Origin: a virus
Lineage: Duplodnaviria > Caudoviricetes
DNA length: 31,447 bases
Virus record (IMG/VR): IMGVR_UViG_3300032233_000328
Span: 1-31,447 of that record
Direction: 5' to 3' (one strand)
Each line of letters begins with the position of its first letter. Position 1 is the first letter of the stretch. The notes below the pieces were generated by a model. It saw only the letters and a list, made by a program, of their open reading frames with translations, had not been told where the DNA came from and made no database searches. A program made the translations under genes and the position numbers. This document shows, piece by piece, positions 4,846 to 31,447 of the stretch.

Positions 4846-4853
4846 TATATTTG
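4846..4853 (+). promoter_or_regulatory. Bacteroidota -7 promoter element
   Basis: TATATTTG 15 nt upstream of ATG 4869, followed by the leader AAAAAAACACACT. Confidence 0.7.
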
Positions 4854-4868
4854 ACAAAAAAACACACT

Positions 4869-5177
4869 ATGAAAGATTACGACAGCTTTAGAATTTATGA
4901 CTTTACTGGATTCGAAAAAGAATTTGGTTTTAGTATGAAGGTAGATGGCAAATGGCAGGAATTTACTTGTACGGCAGACTACCACGTTAAGTATGATTCT
5001 CCTGAAGATAACTTTACAATGATCTTAGATAAAGCTAACGTACAAATGTACGATGCTACAAAAGAAGATTACGTAAGCTACAGTCTAACAAAAGACGAAT
5101 TAACTACTCTTCAAAGCTGGATGCACGATGCTACCCATTGGGATGAGTACTACGAGTATATGAACCTACATCAATAA
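4869..5177 (+). CDS. Hypothetical acidic protein (early-type gene)
   Basis: ORF track starts at TTG 4851, which lies inside the promoter; ATG 4869 follows the shared ACACT-ATG leader. Confidence 0.7.
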   Translation: MKDYDSFRIYDFTGFEKEFGFSMKVDGKWQEFTCTADYHVKYDSPEDNFTMILDKANVQMYDATKEDYVSYSLTKDELTTLQSWMHDATHWDEYYEYMNLHQ

Positions 5178-5713: not shown

Positions 5714-6274
5714 ATGTTGTTAGCAGAATCTACAGAAACATCGACTGAATGGCTTAATAAGGTCGCTAAACATCACAAGTTTTTTGTAGGTGTGGTAGAG
5801 GGCTTCGGAGAGAAGTTCTACGCTGAGGACATCGTACAAGAAATGTATTTGAGATTATACAAGTACACTACGTGGGATAAGATAGTAAAAGACGGAGAAG
5901 TTAATAAAGGCTTTGTATGGTTTGTGCTAAGAAACATTTATGTAGATTTCTGTAAGCAAAAGAGTAGAATAGAGAAGTGTGATCTAAACGAAGCTATCTA
6001 TGTTTTTGATGACTCGGTAGATAAACACGAAACACACGCTAAAAACTCTATAGACTACAAAGTAACCGAAGAGATAAAGAGATGGCATTGGTACGATAAG
6101 ATGTTATTTGAACTATACAGAGATTCAGGAATGAGTATGCGTGAATTAGAAGCAGAAACCAAGATAAGTCTTACATCTATATTCCATACTATAAAGCATT
6201 GTAAGCAGCAATTACGAGAAGCAATAGGAGAAGATTATCAGGATTACATTAACGGCGATTATGAGTTACTATAA
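5714..6274 (+). CDS. ECF-type sigma factor (probable late-gene sigma)
   Basis: Region 2 AEDIVQEMYLRL...FVWFVLRNIYVDF; region 4 HTH GMSMRELEAETKISLTSIFHTIKH; 186 aa. Confidence 0.85.
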   Translation: MLLAESTETSTEWLNKVAKHHKFFVGVVEGFGEKFYAEDIVQEMYLRLYKYTTWDKIVKDGEVNKGFVWFVLRNIYVDFCKQKSRIEKCDLNEAIYVFDDSVDKHETHAKNSIDYKVTEEIKRWHWYDKMLFELYRDSGMSMRELEAETKISLTSIFHTIKHCKQQLREAIGEDYQDYINGDYELL

Positions 6275-12937: not shown

Positions 12938-15288
12938 TGCGAAAGGTACAAGTATACATAGAAGGTCAAAGGTTAGAACTATTTGAAGACGAACAGATAC
13001 AAATTACTTCAAGCGTTCAGAACGTTCAGGATATAGCTAAAGTATTTACGGATTTCTCGCAAAGTTTTACCGTACCAGCTTCCGAACATAACAACCAAAT
13101 CTTCCAGCACTTCTACGAAACAGATGTAGACTCTACGTTAGATCATCAGCTAAGACGAAACGCAAAGATAGAAATAGACTTAGTCACTTTCAGAACGGGG
13201 AAGATTCAGTTAGAAAAAGCAAATTTAAAAAAGGGTAGAGTAGAAAACTATTCAGTTACTTTCTATGGTGATGTTAGAACGCTTCAGGATTACTTTGGGG
13301 ATGATAAATTAGCAGTATTAGATTTCTCTCCTTATACGAGCAGTTACTCAGGCGCAGAGGTGCAGTCACGAATCACAGACACTACAGACTACGACATCCG
13401 TTATCCTTTGATTAGTTCGGAGAGAGTATGGTCTTATAGTGACAATACAAGTACGGATATTTTTCATACAGGAACACGTATGAACTATTACGAGTTATTC
13501 CCAGCTATTAAAGTTAGAAGGGTATTTGATGCTATAGAAACGAAGTATGGTGTAGATTTTACAGGAACATTCTTAACAGATCAAAGATTTGACAAAGCAT
13601 TCCTTTATTTGAAAAACACGGAGTCTTTTGAATTTGCTACTGAGCCACAAAAAATAGATTTCACGTACTATAGTGGCTACGATACGACTTCACATATTGC
13701 CCGTAATGTATTTAACACTACAGACGATACTTTACATATAGAATACGATTCAGAAGATATATTCCCATCTTTAGGAACGCACAATATTAATTTTATATGT
13801 AACTCCGTTTCGAACTCTTCAGCAACTTATTATATTGACGTATACAACAACGGATTTTTAGAGACAACAATACAAGGACAAGGAACTGGAAATATTGACA
13901 CGCTGACCTATGAAAATCAAATAGGATTAGACAAGAATTTTTATTTCGTAGTAAGGGCAAATGCAGCTATTACAATTGACATAGATGTATATTACAATCA
14001 ATATAGGACCGAATATTACGACGATGGAAGTGGTACTTTACAAACTATTTATTTACTATACATATTTACCGCTACTACTGCTCCGCTTACGTTAGTCGCT
14101 AACTTAGATATAAACGGAAACATCCCTGATATGACAGTATCAGATTTTGTTAAAGGAGTACTTAAAGAATTTAATCTAACTATAGCACCTATAACCCAAA
14201 CATCTTTTGAGTTAATGCCATTAGAAGATTGGTATTCTAAAGGCAGAATAATAGACATAACAAAGTATACAGATATAGATAGTATAGATATTCAACGAGT
14301 GCCGTTATATAAGCGCATATCGTTTAAATATCAGCAGAGCGAATCTTTTATGAATGGTCAATTTTCAGATACATTCGGAAGAGAATACGGAAGTTTGGAG
14401 CAGACTTATGATTACGATGGCGCAGAATATTTAGTAGAGTCTCCATTTGAGAATTTATTACATAACAAATTTACTGGTACTGATCTTCAGGTAGGCTATT
14501 GCATTAATCGTAATTGGGGTAAGTATATTCCTAAACCTATGTTATTATATATGGCGGAGCAAAAGACGTGTAACTTTAAATTTAACAACGGTTCCTCTGT
14601 AGCTACTTTAACTAACTATATACCATTCGGACAAGACACGTATGCTAATAGTCAATACTATAGCTTAAACTTTGGGCCTGAGATTAGTTCTTTACGTGAT
14701 ATAGTAATTAACAATCATATCTTTAATACCTACTACTCTAATTACATAAATAACTTGTATGTAAAAAAGAATAGATTGGTATATGTTAAATGCTATCTAC
14801 CTCTTTCTATACTTGCTTCTATTCGTTTAAATGACCGTGTAGTAATACGAGATAAACGATACGTAATAAACGAGATGAGTTCTAACCTGACTACGGGAGA
14901 AGTGAACTTAGTTTTGCTTTTAGATTTTAGAAGATTCATTCGTAAGAAACCGAAATTTATTATAGATAAAGCTGGTGGAATTTTTAAGTCTCCGGTTATT
15001 TTACCAAACAAATGTGTACAAGCTGACATAGACGTAGGCACTACAGGAATAACGGCAACGCCTAACAGAATCTTTGTAGACACAAACGTAGAATTTAATA
15101 TCCCTGCTAATCCTGATCCAGCCTATTACCTAATCACGGAAGATAGTTATAGATTAGACACAGAAGATTTCTTTGATTTAAGAAGTGAAGAAGGGACATT
15201 TGACGTTTTAACTATTGTAATAACGTATACATACGAAGACGGAACTACAGAAAAAGAAGACTATCCATTTATATTATCTGACCTATGA
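12937..15288 (+). CDS. Putative baseplate hub / tail tip protein
   Basis: 783 aa; N-terminal FSQSFTVPAS..NN.IF pattern typical of Bacteroidota siphovirus tail proteins; adjacent to the tape measure gene. Confidence 0.6.
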   Translation: MRKVQVYIEGQRLELFEDEQIQITSSVQNVQDIAKVFTDFSQSFTVPASEHNNQIFQHFYETDVDSTLDHQLRRNAKIEIDLVTFRTGKIQLEKANLKKGRVENYSVTFYGDVRTLQDYFGDDKLAVLDFSPYTSSYSGAEVQSRITDTTDYDIRYPLISSERVWSYSDNTSTDIFHTGTRMNYYELFPAIKVRRVFDAIETKYGVDFTGTFLTDQRFDKAFLYLKNTESFEFATEPQKIDFTYYSGYDTTSHIARNVFNTTDDTLHIEYDSEDIFPSLGTHNINFICNSVSNSSATYYIDVYNNGFLETTIQGQGTGNIDTLTYENQIGLDKNFYFVVRANAAITIDIDVYYNQYRTEYYDDGSGTLQTIYLLYIFTATTAPLTLVANLDINGNIPDMTVSDFVKGVLKEFNLTIAPITQTSFELMPLEDWYSKGRIIDITKYTDIDSIDIQRVPLYKRISFKYQQSESFMNGQFSDTFGREYGSLEQTYDYDGAEYLVESPFENLLHNKFTGTDLQVGYCINRNWGKYIPKPMLLYMAEQKTCNFKFNNGSSVATLTNYIPFGQDTYANSQYYSLNFGPEISSLRDIVINNHIFNTYYSNYINNLYVKKNRLVYVKCYLPLSILASIRLNDRVVIRDKRYVINEMSSNLTTGEVNLVLLLDFRRFIRKKPKFIIDKAGGIFKSPVILPNKCVQADIDVGTTGITATPNRIFVDTNVEFNIPANPDPAYYLITEDSYRLDTEDFFDLRSEEGTFDVLTIVITYTYEDGTTEKEDYPFILSDL

Positions 15289-19435: not shown

Positions 19436-20044
19436 ATGAAAACAAACGTAATAAACCAAATTAAACAACTTCTTGGAATGGAAGTTAAACTTGAGCAAAT
19501 GATGTTAGCTGATGGAGTAACTGTAATCGAAGCGGATTCTTTTGATCCTGAGATGGCGGTAGTAATCGTAACAGAAGACGAACAAAAAATTCCTTTGCCT
19601 GTAGGTGAATATGAATTAGAAGATGGTCGTATTCTTGTGGTAGCAGTAGAAGGTATCATTGCTGAAGTTAAAGAAGCACCAGCACAAGAAGAAGAAGCGC
19701 CAATGGAACAACCTGAAGCGGAAGTGCCTGTTGAAGCGGAAGCTGAAGTAGAGGTTTCTACTCCTAAAAAGACGGTTGAGTCTATCATTAAAGAAACGTT
19801 CTTCTCTGAGATGGAAGCATTGAAACTTGAGAACGAAGAATTGAAAGCTAAATTGGAAACGTTTTCTAAAGTTGAGCCTACTACAGAAGTTACTACTGAA
19901 GAAGCTACTGAAAAAGTTGAACTCGAAGAAGTAAAACCTATTTCTTTCAACCCTGAAAAAACTAATCCTACAGAGTTCTTTAAACTTGCTTCTAAGAAAC
20001 CAAGAACTACTATGGATGTAATCCTTGAAAAACTTAATAAATAA
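19436..20044 (+). CDS. Putative capsid scaffolding protein
   Basis: Very Glu-rich; LPVGEYELEDGRILVV.EG.I motif; directly upstream of the capsid gene. Confidence 0.7.
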   Translation: MKTNVINQIKQLLGMEVKLEQMMLADGVTVIEADSFDPEMAVVIVTEDEQKIPLPVGEYELEDGRILVVAVEGIIAEVKEAPAQEEEAPMEQPEAEVPVEAEAEVEVSTPKKTVESIIKETFFSEMEALKLENEELKAKLETFSKVEPTTEVTTEEATEKVELEEVKPISFNPEKTNPTEFFKLASKKPRTTMDVILEKLNK

Positions 20045-20068
20045 TATTAATTCTTAATTTAAAAAACG

Positions 20069-21028
20069 ATGGCAACTACAACATCAATTACTACAACTTA
20101 TGCTGGTGAGTTCGCAGGTAAATACATCGCTGCTGCTCTCCTTTCTGCTCCAACTTTAGAGCAAGGTGGACTTACTATTCACCCAAATGTAAAGTACAAA
20201 CAAGTTATCCAAAAGGTAGCAACTGACGGAATCGTTAAAGATGCTACTTGTGACTTCGATGCTACTTCTACAGTAACACTTACTGAGAAAGTTCTTCAAC
20301 CTGAAGAATATCAAGTAAATTTGCAACTTTGTAAAAAATCATTTCATAGCACGTGGCAAGCGGCTGAGATGGGTTACGGAGCATTCGATGTTCTTCCTAA
20401 ATCTTTCGCAGATTTCCTTATTGCACACGTAGCTGAGAAAGTTGCTTCTCACATCGAAGGTGTTATTTGGGAAGGTAACAACGCTTCTGCTGGTGAATTC
20501 TCAGGAATTAACCGTCAGTTGACTACAGACGCCGAACTTCCATCTGCACAAGAAATTGCTGCTGTTGGTGGTGGTGTAAATGCTGGAAACGTTATTGCTC
20601 AGTTGGGTGCTATCGTTGATGCTTGTCCTACACGTTTGTATGGTGCGCCTGATCTTAAATTGTATCTTTCTTCTAACATCGTACGTGCTTATATCCGTGC
20701 TTTGGGTGGATTCGGTGCGTCAGGTCTTGGTGCTAATGGTACTAACAATCAAGGTACACAATGGTATACTAATGGTTCTTTGAGTTTCGATGGTATTCCA
20801 ATCTTCCTTGCTAACGGTATGGATAACAACAAAGGTTTGTTAACTACTACTACTAACCTACACTTCGCTACAGGTTTGATGTCTGACTTGAACCAAGTTA
20901 AAGTATTGGATATGGCAGAATTGGATGGTTCTGAGAACGTAAGAGTAATTATGCGTTTTACAGCTGATGCTAAATATGGTTTCGCTGGAGACATCGTAAC
21001 TTACGGAATTACAAACTCAGCTAACTAA
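20069..21028 (+). CDS. Major capsid protein
   Basis: 319 aa; TTYAGEFAGKYIAAALLS, VNLQLCKK; strong codon bias; follows the scaffold gene and is followed by a terminator. Confidence 0.85.
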   Translation: MATTTSITTTYAGEFAGKYIAAALLSAPTLEQGGLTIHPNVKYKQVIQKVATDGIVKDATCDFDATSTVTLTEKVLQPEEYQVNLQLCKKSFHSTWQAAEMGYGAFDVLPKSFADFLIAHVAEKVASHIEGVIWEGNNASAGEFSGINRQLTTDAELPSAQEIAAVGGGVNAGNVIAQLGAIVDACPTRLYGAPDLKLYLSSNIVRAYIRALGGFGASGLGANGTNNQGTQWYTNGSLSFDGIPIFLANGMDNNKGLLTTTTNLHFATGLMSDLNQVKVLDMAELDGSENVRVIMRFTADAKYGFAGDIVTYGITNSAN

Positions 21029-21049
21029 TATTACTGACTTAAATTAACG

Positions 21050-21080
21050 AGGGTGGTGGAATATCTGCCACCCTTTTTTT
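21050..21080 (+). terminator. Intrinsic terminator after capsid gene
   Basis: AGGGTGGTGGA-ATA-TCTGCCACCCT stem plus T-tract. Confidence 0.9.
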
Positions 21081-21103
21081 AATAACTTTAAATACTTTAA
21101 AAA

Positions 21104-21652
21104 ATGTCTTGTGATATAGCAAATGGTGTAGCAGAACCGTGTAAAACCGCAGTTGGTGGATTGGATGCAATCTACCTAATCAATTACGGAGATTACGCTG
21201 CTTCAGATATTACCTACAACGCAACAGCAACAGATCAGATTGACGATATCAATTCTGTTTCTTCTATCTACAAGTTTGAATTGAAAGGTGCAAACTCTTT
21301 CGAGCAAACTATTACTTCAAGCCGTGACAACGGAACTACTTACGTAGAGCAAACTTTGACTGTTACTCTTAAACAACAAAGCGCAGCTAAACACAAGTTG
21401 GTTAAATTGTTGGCTTACGGTCGCCCTCACGTTATCGTTAGAACACGTGCTGGTCAATACTTCCTTGCTGGTCTTGAGCGTGGAATGGATTTGACAAGCG
21501 GTGTTATCTCTAATGGTACTGCAATGGGAGACTTGAACGGATACACACTTACCTTTACGGGTATGGAAAACATCCCTGCTAACTTCTTGAACTGCTCTAC
21601 AGAAGCAGGATTAGTTTCAGTTATGTCTTCCGCTACTATTGTCACTTCATAG
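21104..21652 (+). CDS. Major tail tube protein
   Basis: 182 aa; MSC...EPCK..VGG, YVEQTLTVTL, GTAMGDLNGYTLTFTGME; high-expression codon bias. Confidence 0.75.
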   Translation: MSCDIANGVAEPCKTAVGGLDAIYLINYGDYAASDITYNATATDQIDDINSVSSIYKFELKGANSFEQTITSSRDNGTTYVEQTLTVTLKQQSAAKHKLVKLLAYGRPHVIVRTRAGQYFLAGLERGMDLTSGVISNGTAMGDLNGYTLTFTGMENIPANFLNCSTEAGLVSVMSSATIVTS

Positions 21653-21670
21653 TGTTTCTTTCATAGTGTT
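21646..21670 (+). repeat. Tandem TTCATAGTGTT (period 14) antisense to early-gene start regions
   Basis: Copies at 21646-21656 and 21660-21670; reverse complement matches 29094-29109 (16/16), 4864-4876 (13/13) and 30229-30244 (15/16). Confidence 0.8.
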
Positions 21671-21675
21671 AGATT

Positions 21676-21704
21676 GGGGAGGCTTCGGTCTCCCTTTTCT
21701 TTTT
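21676..21704 (+). terminator. Intrinsic terminator with cUUCGg tetraloop
   Basis: GGGGAGGC-TTCG-GTCTCCCT followed by TTTCTTTTT. Confidence 0.92.
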
Positions 21705-21707
21705 AAA

Positions 21708-21734
21708 AACAAAATCGAACTGCCGTAGTTAATA
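21708..21734 (+). promoter_or_regulatory. AAC-N17-GTT motif upstream of portal operon
   Basis: AAC 21708-21710, AGTTAATA 21727-21734, directly after a terminator; ATG at 21739. Confidence 0.7.
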
Positions 21735-21738
21735 TAGT

Positions 21739-22071
21739 ATGATTATCTTACAGGAAGTAGGTACGGCACAAAGTTTTTCATTTATCCCTCGTTCGGATAG
21801 CTATAATACTTTGCAGATTACAGATGAGCAAACGGGTGTAACATCAAATGTTACTATCACGTCTTTTGTTATAGGTCAGTATTACCACACGATTACGGCT
21901 ACATTTTCTTTAAAGCAGAATCATTACTACACACTAACACTTAAGCAAAACACGGACATCGTTTACAAAGACAAGGTATTTTGTACTAATCAGTCTATAC
22001 CGACTTTTAGCGTAAACAACGGTCAATACATAGTGAATACGTCAAATAACGACTTTATACTTTATGAGTAA
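21739..22071 (+). CDS. Putative virion structural protein
   Basis: 110-aa beta-rich ORF directly upstream of the portal. Confidence 0.55.
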   Translation: MIILQEVGTAQSFSFIPRSDSYNTLQITDEQTGVTSNVTITSFVIGQYYHTITATFSLKQNHYYTLTLKQNTDIVYKDKVFCTNQSIPTFSVNNGQYIVNTSNNDFILYE

Positions 22072-28133: not shown

Positions 28134-28913
28134 ATGACAAGAAAAAGACTCTTCTTCGATATTGAAGTAAGCCCAAACGTTGTTTTAAGCTGGAGAACTG
28201 GATATAACCTAACCATAACTCCATTTGACATTATTCAGGAACGTGCTATAATTTGCATTTGTTGGAAGTGGGAAGGTGAGAATGAAGTACATTCCTTAAC
28301 TTGGGATAAAAAGCAAAATGATAAAGCAATGCTAAAAACCTTTTTAAAAGAGGTAAATAAAGCAGATGAACTTATCGGACATAACTCAGATAGATTCGAC
28401 GTCAAATGGCTGCGTACAAGATGCGTTTATCATAGCGTTGATATGTTCCCTACCTATCAAACGTTAGACACGCTTAAAATGGCTAAAAGTGGCTTTATTT
28501 TTAATTCTAATAAGTTAGACTATATAGCCCAATATTTAGGAGTAGGAAAAAAGTTAGAAACTGGTGGTATTGATCTATGGAAAAAAGTGTGTTTAGAAAA
28601 AGACGAAACTGCTTTAGAACATATGGTAGAGTATTGCAAACAAGACGTAGTAATCTTAGAAAAGGTATTCGATAAACTAAGACCATATTCAAAGCATAAA
28701 CTAAACTACGCTATGTTAAGAGGTGGAGATAAGTTTGAGTGTCCGAATTGCGGTACGTACAATGTTAAGTTATCTAAGACGTACACAACGAGTGCTGGAG
28801 TAATGCGTCATTCTTTCGTATGTAAAGAAGGATGTCGAAGCGCATATACTGTTAGTAACAAAACTTATCAGGATTGGCTTAAACATCTTATCTTAGTCAA
28901 GAATATAAAATAG
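28134..28913 (+). CDS. DnaQ/RNase H-like (YprB-type) 3'-5' exonuclease with C-terminal zinc ribbon
   Basis: FFDIE (Exo I), GHNSDRFD (Exo II), YCKQDV (Exo III), CPNCG...CKEGC. Confidence 0.85.
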   Translation: MTRKRLFFDIEVSPNVVLSWRTGYNLTITPFDIIQERAIICICWKWEGENEVHSLTWDKKQNDKAMLKTFLKEVNKADELIGHNSDRFDVKWLRTRCVYHSVDMFPTYQTLDTLKMAKSGFIFNSNKLDYIAQYLGVGKKLETGGIDLWKKVCLEKDETALEHMVEYCKQDVVILEKVFDKLRPYSKHKLNYAMLRGGDKFECPNCGTYNVKLSKTYTTSAGVMRHSFVCKEGCRSAYTVSNKTYQDWLKHLILVKNIK

Positions 28914-28917
28914 TTTT

Positions 28918-28936
28918 TGTTTCTTTTAGGTGTTTA
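28918..28936 (+). promoter_or_regulatory. 3'-UTR segment antisense to early-gene leaders
   Basis: TGTTTCTTTTAGGTGTTTA can pair with 30218-30237 and 29085-29102. Confidence 0.6.
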
Positions 28937-28962
28937 GAGGGTGGCTTTGGCTGCCCTTTTTT
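28937..28962 (+). terminator. Intrinsic terminator ending the late region
   Basis: GAGGGTGGC-TTTG-GCTGCCCTT plus T-tract. Confidence 0.88.
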
Positions 28963-29051
28963 GTTAAATAGTATTTACATAAAAGCCCTTATTTGTAAAG
29001 AGTATTTACTATTAACAATCAAATGTTAATTAAATAATTGTTTAAAAGTAC

Positions 29052-29081
29052 TTGCTTATTAACAAAATAGACTTATATTTG
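29052..29081 (+). promoter_or_regulatory. Consensus Bacteroidota primary-sigma promoter (early)
   Basis: TTG 29052-29054, 19-nt spacer, TATATTTG 29074-29081. Confidence 0.88.
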
Positions 29082-29104
29082 TCGAAACAATTAAAAGAAA
29101 CACT

Positions 29105-29344
29105 ATGAAAAAACAACTGAAAGAAGCACGTATGCTTCACCTGAGAGCAGATCAGCTTTTAGAACTTTGCGAAGAAGCGCAAAAGAAAGTAGAATCAATG
29201 TGCAGATGGAATGTAGAGGTAGCAATCCCTAACGGATTTGAAACCCATTCTGACGAAGACATTGAATTTCAAGAACGAGTAGTAGAACGTATATGGAGAA
29301 GCTACCGAGTATTAGTAAACAAAATCAATGAGAACACGATATGA
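29105..29344 (+). CDS. Hypothetical early protein
   Basis: First ORF after the consensus promoter. Confidence 0.75.
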   Translation: MKKQLKEARMLHLRADQLLELCEEAQKKVESMCRWNVEVAIPNGFETHSDEDIEFQERVVERIWRSYRVLVNKINENTI

Positions 29345-29478: not shown

Positions 29479-29663
29479 AAACACGAAACCCATTTAAGAA
29501 AGCAGTACAGGCATTGAATCAACACCTAAAAGCTACTACATTAGAGAACGAGTTTATCCCTAATAACGGAGTAAGACACGGAGACTTAAAACGCTACTGG
29601 GATAATTACAATGCAGCATTAGTTAACCGAATCTCAGAAATCAGAAATTATGAAAAGCTATAA
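29475..29663 (+). CDS. Hypothetical protein
   Basis: 62-aa ORF, ATGA overlap. Confidence 0.65.
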   Translation: MKTRNPFKKAVQALNQHLKATTLENEFIPNNGVRHGDLKRYWDNYNAALVNRISEIRNYEKL

Positions 29664-29793
29664 GATAACATACAGAGTAAAAGTCAAAGAGTGGGAGACA
29701 CGTTATTTAATAGTTCGTGCTTACACACATTCGGAAGCTAAAGAACGCTTTACACTTTGGAAAGGATTAATAACAGATATACACGAGATATGA
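29650..29793 (+). CDS. Small hypothetical protein (47 aa; not in ORF track)
   Basis: MKSYKITYRVKVKEWETRYLIVRAY...DIHEI; ATGA overlap with the next gene. Confidence 0.65.
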   Translation: MKSYKITYRVKVKEWETRYLIVRAYTHSEAKERFTLWKGLITDIHEI

Positions 29794-30209
29794 ACTACGA
29801 ACTAAACACGATTAGAAACACGAAAAAAACTTTTGCTAAGAACACACGCTATATGTTCGAAGACTTCTTAATAACTTGCCCTTTCTCTATGTCTTATCTA
29901 CGTGAGAAGAACCGAAAACAAGAAGTAATGCAATGGAGACAGATAGGAATGGCTTGGTATGCTATGGAGTATAACTCTTTAACACAAGCTGGAGAGTTCT
30001 TTAATCACGATCACAGCACAGTAGTACACGCTCTTAAATGTATTCAGGACAGGAAATGGAATCCGTCTTTATCTAACAAGGTAGATGCAATTTTAGAACT
30101 GATGCAGTTAGAAATAGAAAGTTCAGATCAGATAGGAATGCGAGAAGTTAACTCATTAGTTTACTTAGAAAAATTAATTAGAAAGAAACTTGCTTTTGTT
30201 GAAAAGTAG
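29790..30209 (+). CDS. DnaA domain IV (C-terminal HTH)-like DNA-binding protein
   Basis: RKQEVMQWRQIGM...SLTQAGEFFNHDHSTVVHALKCI matches the DnaA signature SLxxIGxxFxRDHTTVxHA; start reassigned to ATG 29790. Confidence 0.8.
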   Translation: MNYELNTIRNTKKTFAKNTRYMFEDFLITCPFSMSYLREKNRKQEVMQWRQIGMAWYAMEYNSLTQAGEFFNHDHSTVVHALKCIQDRKWNPSLSNKVDAILELMQLEIESSDQIGMREVNSLVYLEKLIRKKLAFVEK

Positions 30210-30217
30210 TATATTTG
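30190..30217 (+). promoter_or_regulatory. Bacteroidota primary-sigma promoter
   Basis: TTG 30190-30192, 17-nt spacer, TATATTTG 30210-30217. Confidence 0.8.
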
Positions 30218-30239
30218 TAAACACTTAAAAAGAAACACA

Positions 30240-30779
30240 ATGAAACATTTATTCAAAGCGTTGGCTGAGTTCCAACAAGAAGTGCCAGTAATCTTTAAAG
30301 GTACAACAGCAGGAAGCGGAAACTTTGCTTATCAGTATGCAGACCTTCCAGCTATTCTAAACGTGATTAATCCTTTAATGCAGAAACACGGATTAGGATT
30401 TACCCAACTAACTAACCACAAAGAGGGAGTTGACTATTTAGTAACTGTAGTATTTCACGTAGAAAGCGGAGAGACTTTAGAAACATCGTTACGCCTAATG
30501 CCTGACGTAGAGTTAAAAGGTCAAAACATATTCCAGTCTTACGGAAGCCAACTTACTTACTTTAGACGTTACGGCATCTCTCAGATTTTAGGTTTGGTTA
30601 CGGACAAGGACACGGATGCAGTAGGCGAAACTACCAAGAAAAAGATATTCCCTAATGAACGTTTTGAAACGGGAATGAATATGGTGTTTAAAGGCGAAAT
30701 AACAAAAGCACAATTCCTTAAAGCCGTTAAAGGATACGAACTAACAGAAGACCAATCTAAACAACTCGAAGCGATATGA
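30240..30779 (+). CDS. erf: ERF-family single-strand annealing recombinase
   Basis: YQYADL..I...INPLMQKHGL, HVESGE, YGSQLTYFRRYGISQILGLVTDKDTD. Confidence 0.9.
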   Translation: MKHLFKALAEFQQEVPVIFKGTTAGSGNFAYQYADLPAILNVINPLMQKHGLGFTQLTNHKEGVDYLVTVVFHVESGETLETSLRLMPDVELKGQNIFQSYGSQLTYFRRYGISQILGLVTDKDTDAVGETTKKKIFPNERFETGMNMVFKGEITKAQFLKAVKGYELTEDQSKQLEAI

Positions 30780-31447
30780 AAATTAGATGTAGCGCAATAG
30801 GAAAGCTGATGAGTACTCCCCGATCAAAAGGGGAGACACTCTCAGAAACGGCAAAGACTTACATTCAGGATTTGTTTAAGGAAAAGGAGTTAGGTATATC
30901 ACGGGAGTTTTGGAGCAGATATACCGACAAAGGACTACAAATGGAAGACGAAGCTATTGATTTCGCTGGTCAAGTGTTAGGATGGGATTTCGTAGTAAAA
31001 AACGAACAAGGCTACGAGAACGAATGGATAACTGGAACACCTGACGTAATTACAAAGGACTTACTTGCCGACATTAAATGTTCTTGGGATGGAAACACCT
31101 TTCCTTTATTTGACATTGAGTTAAAGAATAAGGATTACTTTTGGCAACTACAAGGCTATATGTGGTTAACGGGATTAGACCAATCTGAGTTAGTTTATTG
31201 CCTAATGGACACACCTCATCAAATAGTAGAAGACGAAGTACGTAGAGCGCATTGGAAAGCTGGACTTATTGACGAAGATTTAGACCTACGTGAAGCAGTC
31301 CAGTCGCAACATTCATTTGATCACATACCAAACAACCTACGCATTAAAAGATTCATCGTAGAAAGAAACGAAGACGCTATTGAAAATATCAAAGAGAAGG
31401 TAGAGTTAGCACGTGAGTATTACGAACAATTAAAGAGTATAATATGA
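30776..31447 (+). CDS. YqaJ/lambda-exonuclease-like recombination nuclease
   Basis: IRCSAIG, KGLQMEDEAI, GTPD, DIKCSW, YFWQLQGYMWLTG; paired with ERF. Confidence 0.88.
   Translation: MKIRCSAIGKLMSTPRSKGETLSETAKTYIQDLFKEKELGISREFWSRYTDKGLQMEDEAIDFAGQVLGWDFVVKNEQGYENEWITGTPDVITKDLLADIKCSWDGNTFPLFDIELKNKDYFWQLQGYMWLTGLDQSELVYCLMDTPHQIVEDEVRRAHWKAGLIDEDLDLREAVQSQHSFDHIPNNLRIKRFIVERNEDAIENIKEKVELAREYYEQLKSII
31325..31447. repeat. Terminal direct repeat (copy 2)
   Basis: Identical to 1-123. Confidence 0.97.

Follow-up and report, generated by a model that had tools for sequence, protein, structure and literature searches.

Does the 3' end of a structural transcript act, as RNA, on the early genes of the same phage? 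The window (the whole stretch of DNA analysed here, 31,447 nt) raises this question: directly behind its tail-tube-like gene, and ahead of a terminator, lies a short tract complementary to start codons in other parts of the genome. The original prediction held that structural-gene transcripts use this tract to shut off the translation of early genes.

The sequences at 1-123 and 31325-31447 of the window are identical, so the record represents a complete, circularly closed phage genome (31.4 kb, with a 123-nt terminal repeat). Its source is freshwater, and nearly all of its genes are carried on the plus strand. PHROG and Pfam scans identified an early block containing Erf, an exonuclease, SSB, a replication initiator, a helicase and NinG, with a sigma factor as its last gene, at 5714; terminase, tail, head, portal, endolysin and an exonuclease follow. 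Among cultured phages, relatives were found only in Nonlabens phages P12024S and L (tube identity 34%). The features under discussion are as follows.

4846-4876, plus strand: early promoter box and predicted target 3, the leader and ATG (4869) of a 102-aa gene; 13/13 complement
5714-6274, plus strand: phage sigma factor, likely late activator (phrog_1740, E 6e-9)
21104-21652, plus strand: tail-tube-like gene, 182 aa, with element A at the 3' end of its mRNA (phrog_19091, of unknown function; AlphaFold model; Foldseek)
21646-21670, plus strand: seed of element A, two copies of an anti-start-codon motif (complementarity to starts; TTCATA conservation)
21676-21704, plus strand: intrinsic terminator of A, with UUCG loop and U tract
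28889-28896, plus strand: degenerate host-type -7 box TATCTTAG of element B, a putative promoter
28903-28938, plus strand: seed of element B, paralogue of A, located where the late genes give way to the early ones (duplex energies; occurrence in relatives)
28936-28964, plus strand: intrinsic terminator of B (terminator hairpin)
29074-29109, plus strand: early promoter box and predicted target 1, the leader and start codon (ATG at 29105) of the 79-aa first early gene; 16/16 complement
30210-30244, plus strand: early promoter box and predicted target 2, the leader and ATG (30240) of erf (ERF family); 21/25 complement

The product of 21104-21652 may fold like a tail tube: the top Foldseek rows for its AlphaFold model (pLDDT 79) were phage tail tubes at E 4e-3 to 5e-3, with none at E<=1e-3, and the label combines these weak rows with gene position. 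Just past the tube terminator, at 21707-21741, lies a two-part motif, AAAC[AG]-N12-18-GTT, which occurs in 27 of 41 genomes and may serve the phage sigma factor as a late promoter. The early region also encodes, directly upstream of the erf promoter, a protein with a DnaA C-terminal helix-turn-helix (29790-30209; Bac_DnaA_C, PF08299, E 2.8e-10).

Seeds and predicted targets in the window

Direct comparison bore out the two perfect matches that had been claimed for element A: nucleotides 21646-21661 are the 16-nt complement of 29094-29109, and 21657-21669 are the 13-nt complement of 4864-4876. The 15/16 complement to the erf start was upheld as the core of a match at 21 of 25 positions between 21646-21670 and 30220-30244, and a cUUCGg terminator does follow the tube stop, with its stem at 21676-21695. 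The three targets lie 15-23 nt downstream of boxes at 4846, 29074 and 30210, each reading TATATTTG, the Bacteroidota -7 promoter element; the 102-aa gene heads the block whose last gene is the sigma factor. These were said to be exactly the genes led by such promoters. All three are indeed so placed, but a fourth intergenic TATATTTG box, at 851, has a leader with no long match to the seed (-12.3 to -13.2 kcal/mol), so that the statement applies to three boxes of four. The 851-975 region is of interest in its own right. It comprises the box, a structured leader, a 15-codon upstream ORF (ATG 914) and a terminator-like end, precedes the 978 ORF and the replication initiator, and looks like an attenuator; its exact 12-nt core was found in 2 of 41 genomes.

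Duplex energies calculated for A were -23.5 kcal/mol with erf, -23.0 with the first early gene and -19.4 with the 4869 start. Their mean, -22.0 kcal/mol (z=-6.6), was equalled by none of 200 shuffles. Among the 58 starts of the window the three targets took ranks 1, 2 and 5 by duplex energy; ranks 3 and 4 went to the starts at 15285 and 6440, and A pairs with some non-early starts (15285, 10122). The seed had been described as unpaired, and opening it is calculated to cost just 1.7-3.2 kcal/mol, compared with 0.1-1.1 kcal/mol for the targets (0.1 for target 1). The perfect complement of A to the three starts sums to 39 nt, a value reached by none of 3000 dinucleotide shuffles (mean 19.2, maximum 34); on this evidence, and that of the 200 shuffles scored by energy, we rejected a chance match between AT-rich sequences.

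Ranked by the same sum, A came top of 6,285 plus-strand search windows. The next that did not overlap it was at 28906-28940, which is element B; a second element near 28918 had thus been correctly anticipated. Duplex energies of B with the three targets were -21.8 (erf), -17.0 and -12.2 kcal/mol (ranks 1, 2 and 17 of 58), again with none of 200 shuffles as good. The start of the sigma factor pairs poorly with both elements.

Conservation and covariation across relatives

The window was compared with 40 near-complete relatives (the 14 shortest of 54 records were left out), and these 41 genomes were grouped into 23 lineages, defined as clusters at 90% tube identity. Element B was present in 35 of the 41, in 32 by a strict rule and in 3 by a relaxed one, the usual layout in relatives being a -7 box, then a U-rich seed of 25-50 nt, then a terminator. 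What is conserved at the centre of the system is therefore B and not the tube UTR. In most relatives a canonical TATATTTG/TACATTTG box lies right where the last late gene stops, so that B doubles as a late 3' end and a candidate gene in its own right, 50-70 nt long; given this host-type box, B RNA would probably be present before late transcription. The B of the window is atypical, in that its box reads TATCTTAG and its seed pairs with leaders but has no anti-AUG. A -33 TTG was found at the B box in 2 of 19 cases, as against 30 of 50 early promoters; for bacterial units of similar layout, described below, the figure was 36 of 98 among the matches listed. With the -33 mostly absent and a degenerate box here, B may be a weak promoter unit or only a late 3' end. 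One relative, G045, carries two tandem promoter-short RNA-terminator units at its late/early boundary (29622-29770, oriented to the tube gene), the first of which alone has an anti-start seed.

Element A was followed in 280 tube loci, obtained from five scans of viral contigs. A terminator stands 3' of the tube stop in 278 of the 279 loci with room for one, and TTCATA is present in 40 of 101 distinct tube UTRs (shuffles gave a mean of 2.0 and a maximum of 8) versus 0 of 110 distinct capsid UTRs. The case for A had also drawn on its duplication. The tandem is real in the window, but its first copy shares nucleotides with the final codon and the stop of the tube gene, and only 47 of 280 tube loci have one; we rejected it as a defining feature and regard it as lineage-specific. 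Within the last 130 nt of the tube gene, a host-type box that could serve as an internal promoter of A was found in 1 of 23 lineages and a late-type motif in 0 of 23. In one clade (for example G007, G009, G026 and G043; loci L043-L076 and L207-L224) the tube UTR retains a conserved pyrimidine-rich tract, and its shifted anti-AUG no longer suits the promoter-led starts.

An expression look-up returned six runs with 7-14% of the words, all as contigs. A metatranscriptome contig of a 93% identical relative covers the capsid gene, the tube gene and part of A (19959-21666, depth 14.3); it comes from a single study, and an assembled contig of this kind cannot show strand or a small RNA, so that we give it no weight as evidence. 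Unlike that RNA contig, which ends at 21666, a contig from what is probably a DNA run crosses the A terminator.

Pairing was scored lineage by lineage. In each of the 19 lineages with an element B, it beat its shuffles (no more than 3 of 200 as good). For A the same was true of 13 of 23 lineages (at most 4 of 200); in 9 it did no better than shuffles, and 1 was borderline. With B, promoter-led starts were better partners than late starts in 19 of 19 lineages, and with A in 14 of 19; the sigma start was weaker than the promoter-led starts in 18 of 18, even where sigma has a host-type box of its own.

A separate question is whether seed and leader change together. The promoter-led starts of each genome were tried against all elements, and self pairs were compared with non-self pairs. 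The check for covariation in relatives that accompanied the original prediction gave a positive answer for both elements, with a self preference of -4.84 kcal/mol for B (p=1e-5, n=19) and -1.57 kcal/mol for A (p=0.0003, n=23). When genomes were clustered at 80%, the own leaders ranked first for B in 5 of 5 (p=0.008), and A gave p=0.003. B kept its preference when only distant targets were scored, those beyond 1 kb or those beyond 3 kb (p=1e-5, n=16). Late starts, the control, showed no self preference (A p=0.99, B p=0.36). The other, internal early starts showed a small one for A (p=0.0002) and none for B (p=0.26). Close relatives often cross-pair, and the own rank is greater than 1 for many genomes.

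A held-out set of contigs gave p=4e-5 for B (n=13) and p=0.036 for A (n=17), although its tube proteins are 74-99% identical to those of the first set, so that the two are not phylogenetically independent. This set was drawn from 98 long loci, of which 44 were new, 23 of these had a promoter-led start, and 17 remained after dereplication. Viral contigs picked by pattern supplied 120 loci, of which 94 had a terminator and 27 a promoter-led start downstream. The 14 that remained after dereplication gave p=0.087 for self-pairing, which is not significant; 8 of the 14 have no protein match to this phage group.

On a tree of capsid and tube, distinct seed states go with distinct leader states. Clade-specific seed types (ACACT, ACGCT, AACGT and AATT) are matched to their leaders, and in G006 a perfect 16-nt match between seed and leader is of unrelated sequence. 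Seeds and leaders diverge fast and in step, even within the close pairs G005/G006 and G000/G047. As a separate observation, across 19 lineages the pairing of late starts is slightly poorer with the A of the same genome than with that of other genomes, a hint of avoidance (+0.27 kcal/mol, upper-tail p ~0.005, one of six tests).

Probable RNA pairing and its alternatives

What these genomes show is the complementarity itself, its conservation, its covariation genome by genome, and how poorly late and sigma starts pair. Complementarity to early starts that changes in step across relatives suggests that A and B act as RNAs, and we consider it likely that both are terminator-capped RNAs that pair in trans with early leaders and starts and would block early translation, in the manner of FopS and GibS of Bacteroides. 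Substitutions bear on the choice between RNA and DNA. In alignments restricted to Watson-Crick pairs and to unique element positions, wobble-compatible transitions outnumbered the remaining transitions by 31 to 13 (p=0.010). One class carried the signal, with G in the element opposite U in the target (19:3), and the second was neutral (12:10); at a stricter alignment score p was 0.11, rows share ancestry, and the flanks had the opposite bias (43:78). The G-U wobbles thus speak modestly for pairing as RNA and against a site in DNA.

Alternatively, the motif could be bound by a phage protein as DNA (or RNA), its orientation at early promoters being the reverse of that ahead of the two terminators. 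Such a site would explain the operator-like position of the motif just downstream of promoter boxes. The DnaA-type helix-turn-helix protein of the early region is a candidate binder, and half of the wobble test is neutral. The motif is, however, non-palindromic, centred on the start codon and always inverted ahead of a terminator; its mismatches are asymmetric, with 19 of element G against target U and 3 of the mirror type; and its layout of promoter, seed and terminator is that of proven sRNAs. A protein site would, moreover, need wholesale change of sequence between clades, and we judge it very improbable. We give still less credence to the view that B works only in cis, by folding onto the neighbouring early leader in read-through late transcripts, with A a leftover or the start of an antisense peptide. 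In most genomes B precedes the first early promoter by 117-450 nt, which would suit this view. The persisting self preference for targets more than 3 kb away led us to reject pairing of B in cis only, and A, with its conserved seed, is 7-15 kb from its targets. A peptide read from the anti-AUG was rejected likewise: the frames are 3-24 codons long, mutually unrelated and not conserved.

Two further readings accept an RNA and differ on what it is for. A and B could be generic anti-start RNAs whose targets are host mRNAs, as a form of host shut-off, or an RNA-binding protein of the host such as RbpB; seeds and phage leaders would then match as a by-product of both following the start sequence that the host prefers. 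The seed core is indeed common to bacterial FopS-like units across Bacteroidota, and FopS RNAs are reported, in the accessible part of the source, to have many targets and to bind RbpB (PMC11697453). The small preference of A for its own internal early starts, and its conservation in some clades despite a poor fit to phage starts, point the same way. Set against these are clade-specific perfect matches of 13-16 nt to the phage's own leaders, which exceed any generic start consensus, and the lack of self preference of B for other early or late starts; we think this reading quite unlikely.

It is also unlikely, in our view, that the elements serve mainly as a lock against superinfection, whereby B from a resident genome, in a carrier state or already infecting, silences incoming phages with matching leaders. 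The molecular mechanism would be the same trans pairing, and seed-leader pairs would diverge into immunity types. Element B, with its host-type box, can do without any phage protein, and its seeds and leaders diverge in step between close relatives, as such a lock would have it. A protein repressor is not evident, since no integrase or CI-type repressor family was matched by the 55 proteins compared with PHROGs or the 26 compared with Pfam. A search of genome contigs with the capsid protein, however, gave 91 pattern matches of which none was confirmed, and hence no host or prophage in that collection; A belongs to a structural mRNA, which is made only during lytic growth; and close relatives cross-pair frequently.

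Known RNAs and a proposed order of events

Trans pairing with early leaders, the reading we prefer, has its closest precedents in Bacteroides. Bacteroidota are reported to initiate translation without Shine-Dalgarno pairing, with mRNA structure and the bases just upstream of the AUG being important (PMC6847099, accessible part). FopS comprises 14 paralogues in Bacteroides, one of them derived from a 3' UTR; FopS-10 pairs beside a start codon and blocks initiation in vitro, with compensatory rescue; and BLAST placed a FopS sequence in one Bacteroides phage, to which the accessible part of the paper assigns no function (PMC11697453). Like FopS, the phage elements are multicopy and consist of an accessible, single-stranded anti-start seed followed by an intrinsic terminator, with a host sigma -7 box (for B, in 35 of 41 genomes, and with the -33 TTG in the 2 of 19 noted above). 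A lies in a 3' UTR, as one FopS member does, with no internal box in 22 of 23 lineages, and pairing is predicted over the initiation region. The core of the R1'-type FopS seed is shared by A. Phage seeds nonetheless change by clade with their targets, the B of the window having no anti-AUG, whereas FopS seeds are nearly invariant; and the predicted targets here are the phage's own early genes, whereas those of FopS are host glycan transporters (PMC11697453, accessible part).

FopS (RF04319) was also the best Rfam match at A. The alignment runs the full length of the model and shares the seed core, but the middle of the model is missing and the score is 26.1 bits (E 0.16-4.9) against a gathering score of 56, so that FopS/GibS-like action is predicted without membership in the FopS family. 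The same model recovered 13 over-threshold copies in a Bacteroides control, and no family reached its gathering score in 9 half-genomes of relatives. GibS of B. thetaiotaomicron resembles A and B in its long, AU-rich, unstructured seed and its pairing with start codons in trans, and differs in its length of about 145 nt, its two seeds and its chromosomal metabolic targets, as far as the accessible part of the source describes them (PMC7366714); this comparison is one of features.

Among other phage regulatory RNAs that act by base pairing are P22 sar, P1 c4 and P4 CI RNA, in which geometry or targets differ from those of A and B. Lambda OOP, PreS and VpdS of VP882 are phage-made RNAs that tune phage or host genes by base pairing, as A and B are predicted to do; OOP is antisense to cII-O and PreS acts mainly on host mRNAs, whereas here several unlinked early first cistrons, encoded by the phage itself, are the predicted targets (bioRxiv 10.1101/2024.10.31.621285, accessible part). 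Cis-encoded antisense RNA of the OOP type does not describe these elements: A and B are on the same strand as their targets, and A is 7-15 kb away from them. What the elements do share with trans-acting inhibitors of initiation is complementarity, beyond chance, to unlinked initiation regions. Compensation between seed and leader is seen in nature across these genomes; repression itself is predicted from sequence.

Similar units occur in other genomes. The cultured Nonlabens/Persicivirga phage P12024S (NC_018271), the closest cultured relative found, has the same gene order. Its tube UTR is U-rich and has a terminator, and between its late and early genes lies a unit of TATATTTG, seed and terminator, both units being unannotated; their pairing with its six promoter-led starts was not significant (z=-1.2 for each unit), at a tube identity of 34%. 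In Bacteroidota genome contigs, units with promoter and anti-AUG were followed by a terminator in 99 of 120 among the matches listed, with family-specific seeds in Chitinophagaceae, Mucilaginibacter/Pedobacter (Sphingobacteriaceae), Prevotellaceae and Marinilabiliaceae (L366-L485), which suggests that the FopS layout extends beyond Bacteroidaceae. In Flavobacteriales the strict pattern for a host-encoded unit was found in 8 of 401 genomes, equal to background (the reversed pattern gave 8 matches in 7 genomes). We found no description of a phage RNA that blocks the starts of its own early genes in Bacteroidota, in literature searches with little coverage of subscription journals.

The events of an infection could be ordered as follows. 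Host polymerase would make the early mRNAs and, from its host-type box, B at the same time. B would then accumulate from early infection onward and, like a timer, cap translation of the first cistrons, A and B pairing with promoter-led early mRNAs so that ribosome loading is blocked. The phage sigma factor, spared by both elements, would switch on the late operons. Finally, the capsid-tube mRNA, with A as its 3' end, and the last late mRNA, with B as its 3' end, would supply a larger dose that completes the shut-off; A might act within the whole mRNA or after processing. The original label of late-to-early shut-off survives in part. A fits a late dose and late starts pair poorly, but A pairs well in 13 of 23 lineages only, and B is nearly universal and has a host-type box of its own, so the label covers only A and read-through into B.

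A broader version is possible, but we hold it more tentatively, at somewhat less than even confidence: in a widespread group of freshwater Bacteroidota phages, early shut-off would be achieved by RNA only, the 3' ends of late operons silencing early first cistrons while sparing the late sigma factor, with seed and leader co-evolving as lock and key. One late-operon 3' end would then double as a stand-alone sRNA with a host promoter, and the code may define immunity groups.

Proteins are usually credited with early-gene shut-off in phages. According to the accessible part of a recent account (bioRxiv 10.1101/2024.10.31.621285), few regulatory RNAs encoded by phages are known. The two-copy layout at the ends of late operons and the genome-by-genome test of covariation, with its controls, are new here. 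The idea is directly testable, since natural swaps of seed and leader provide ready-made compensatory pairs, and a cultured relative, P12024S, has a matching layout. A and B are predicted to be a phage version of a type of regulator known from gut Bacteroides; if this is true, an abundant group of phages uses the 3' ends of its structural operons as trans regulators of its own early genes.
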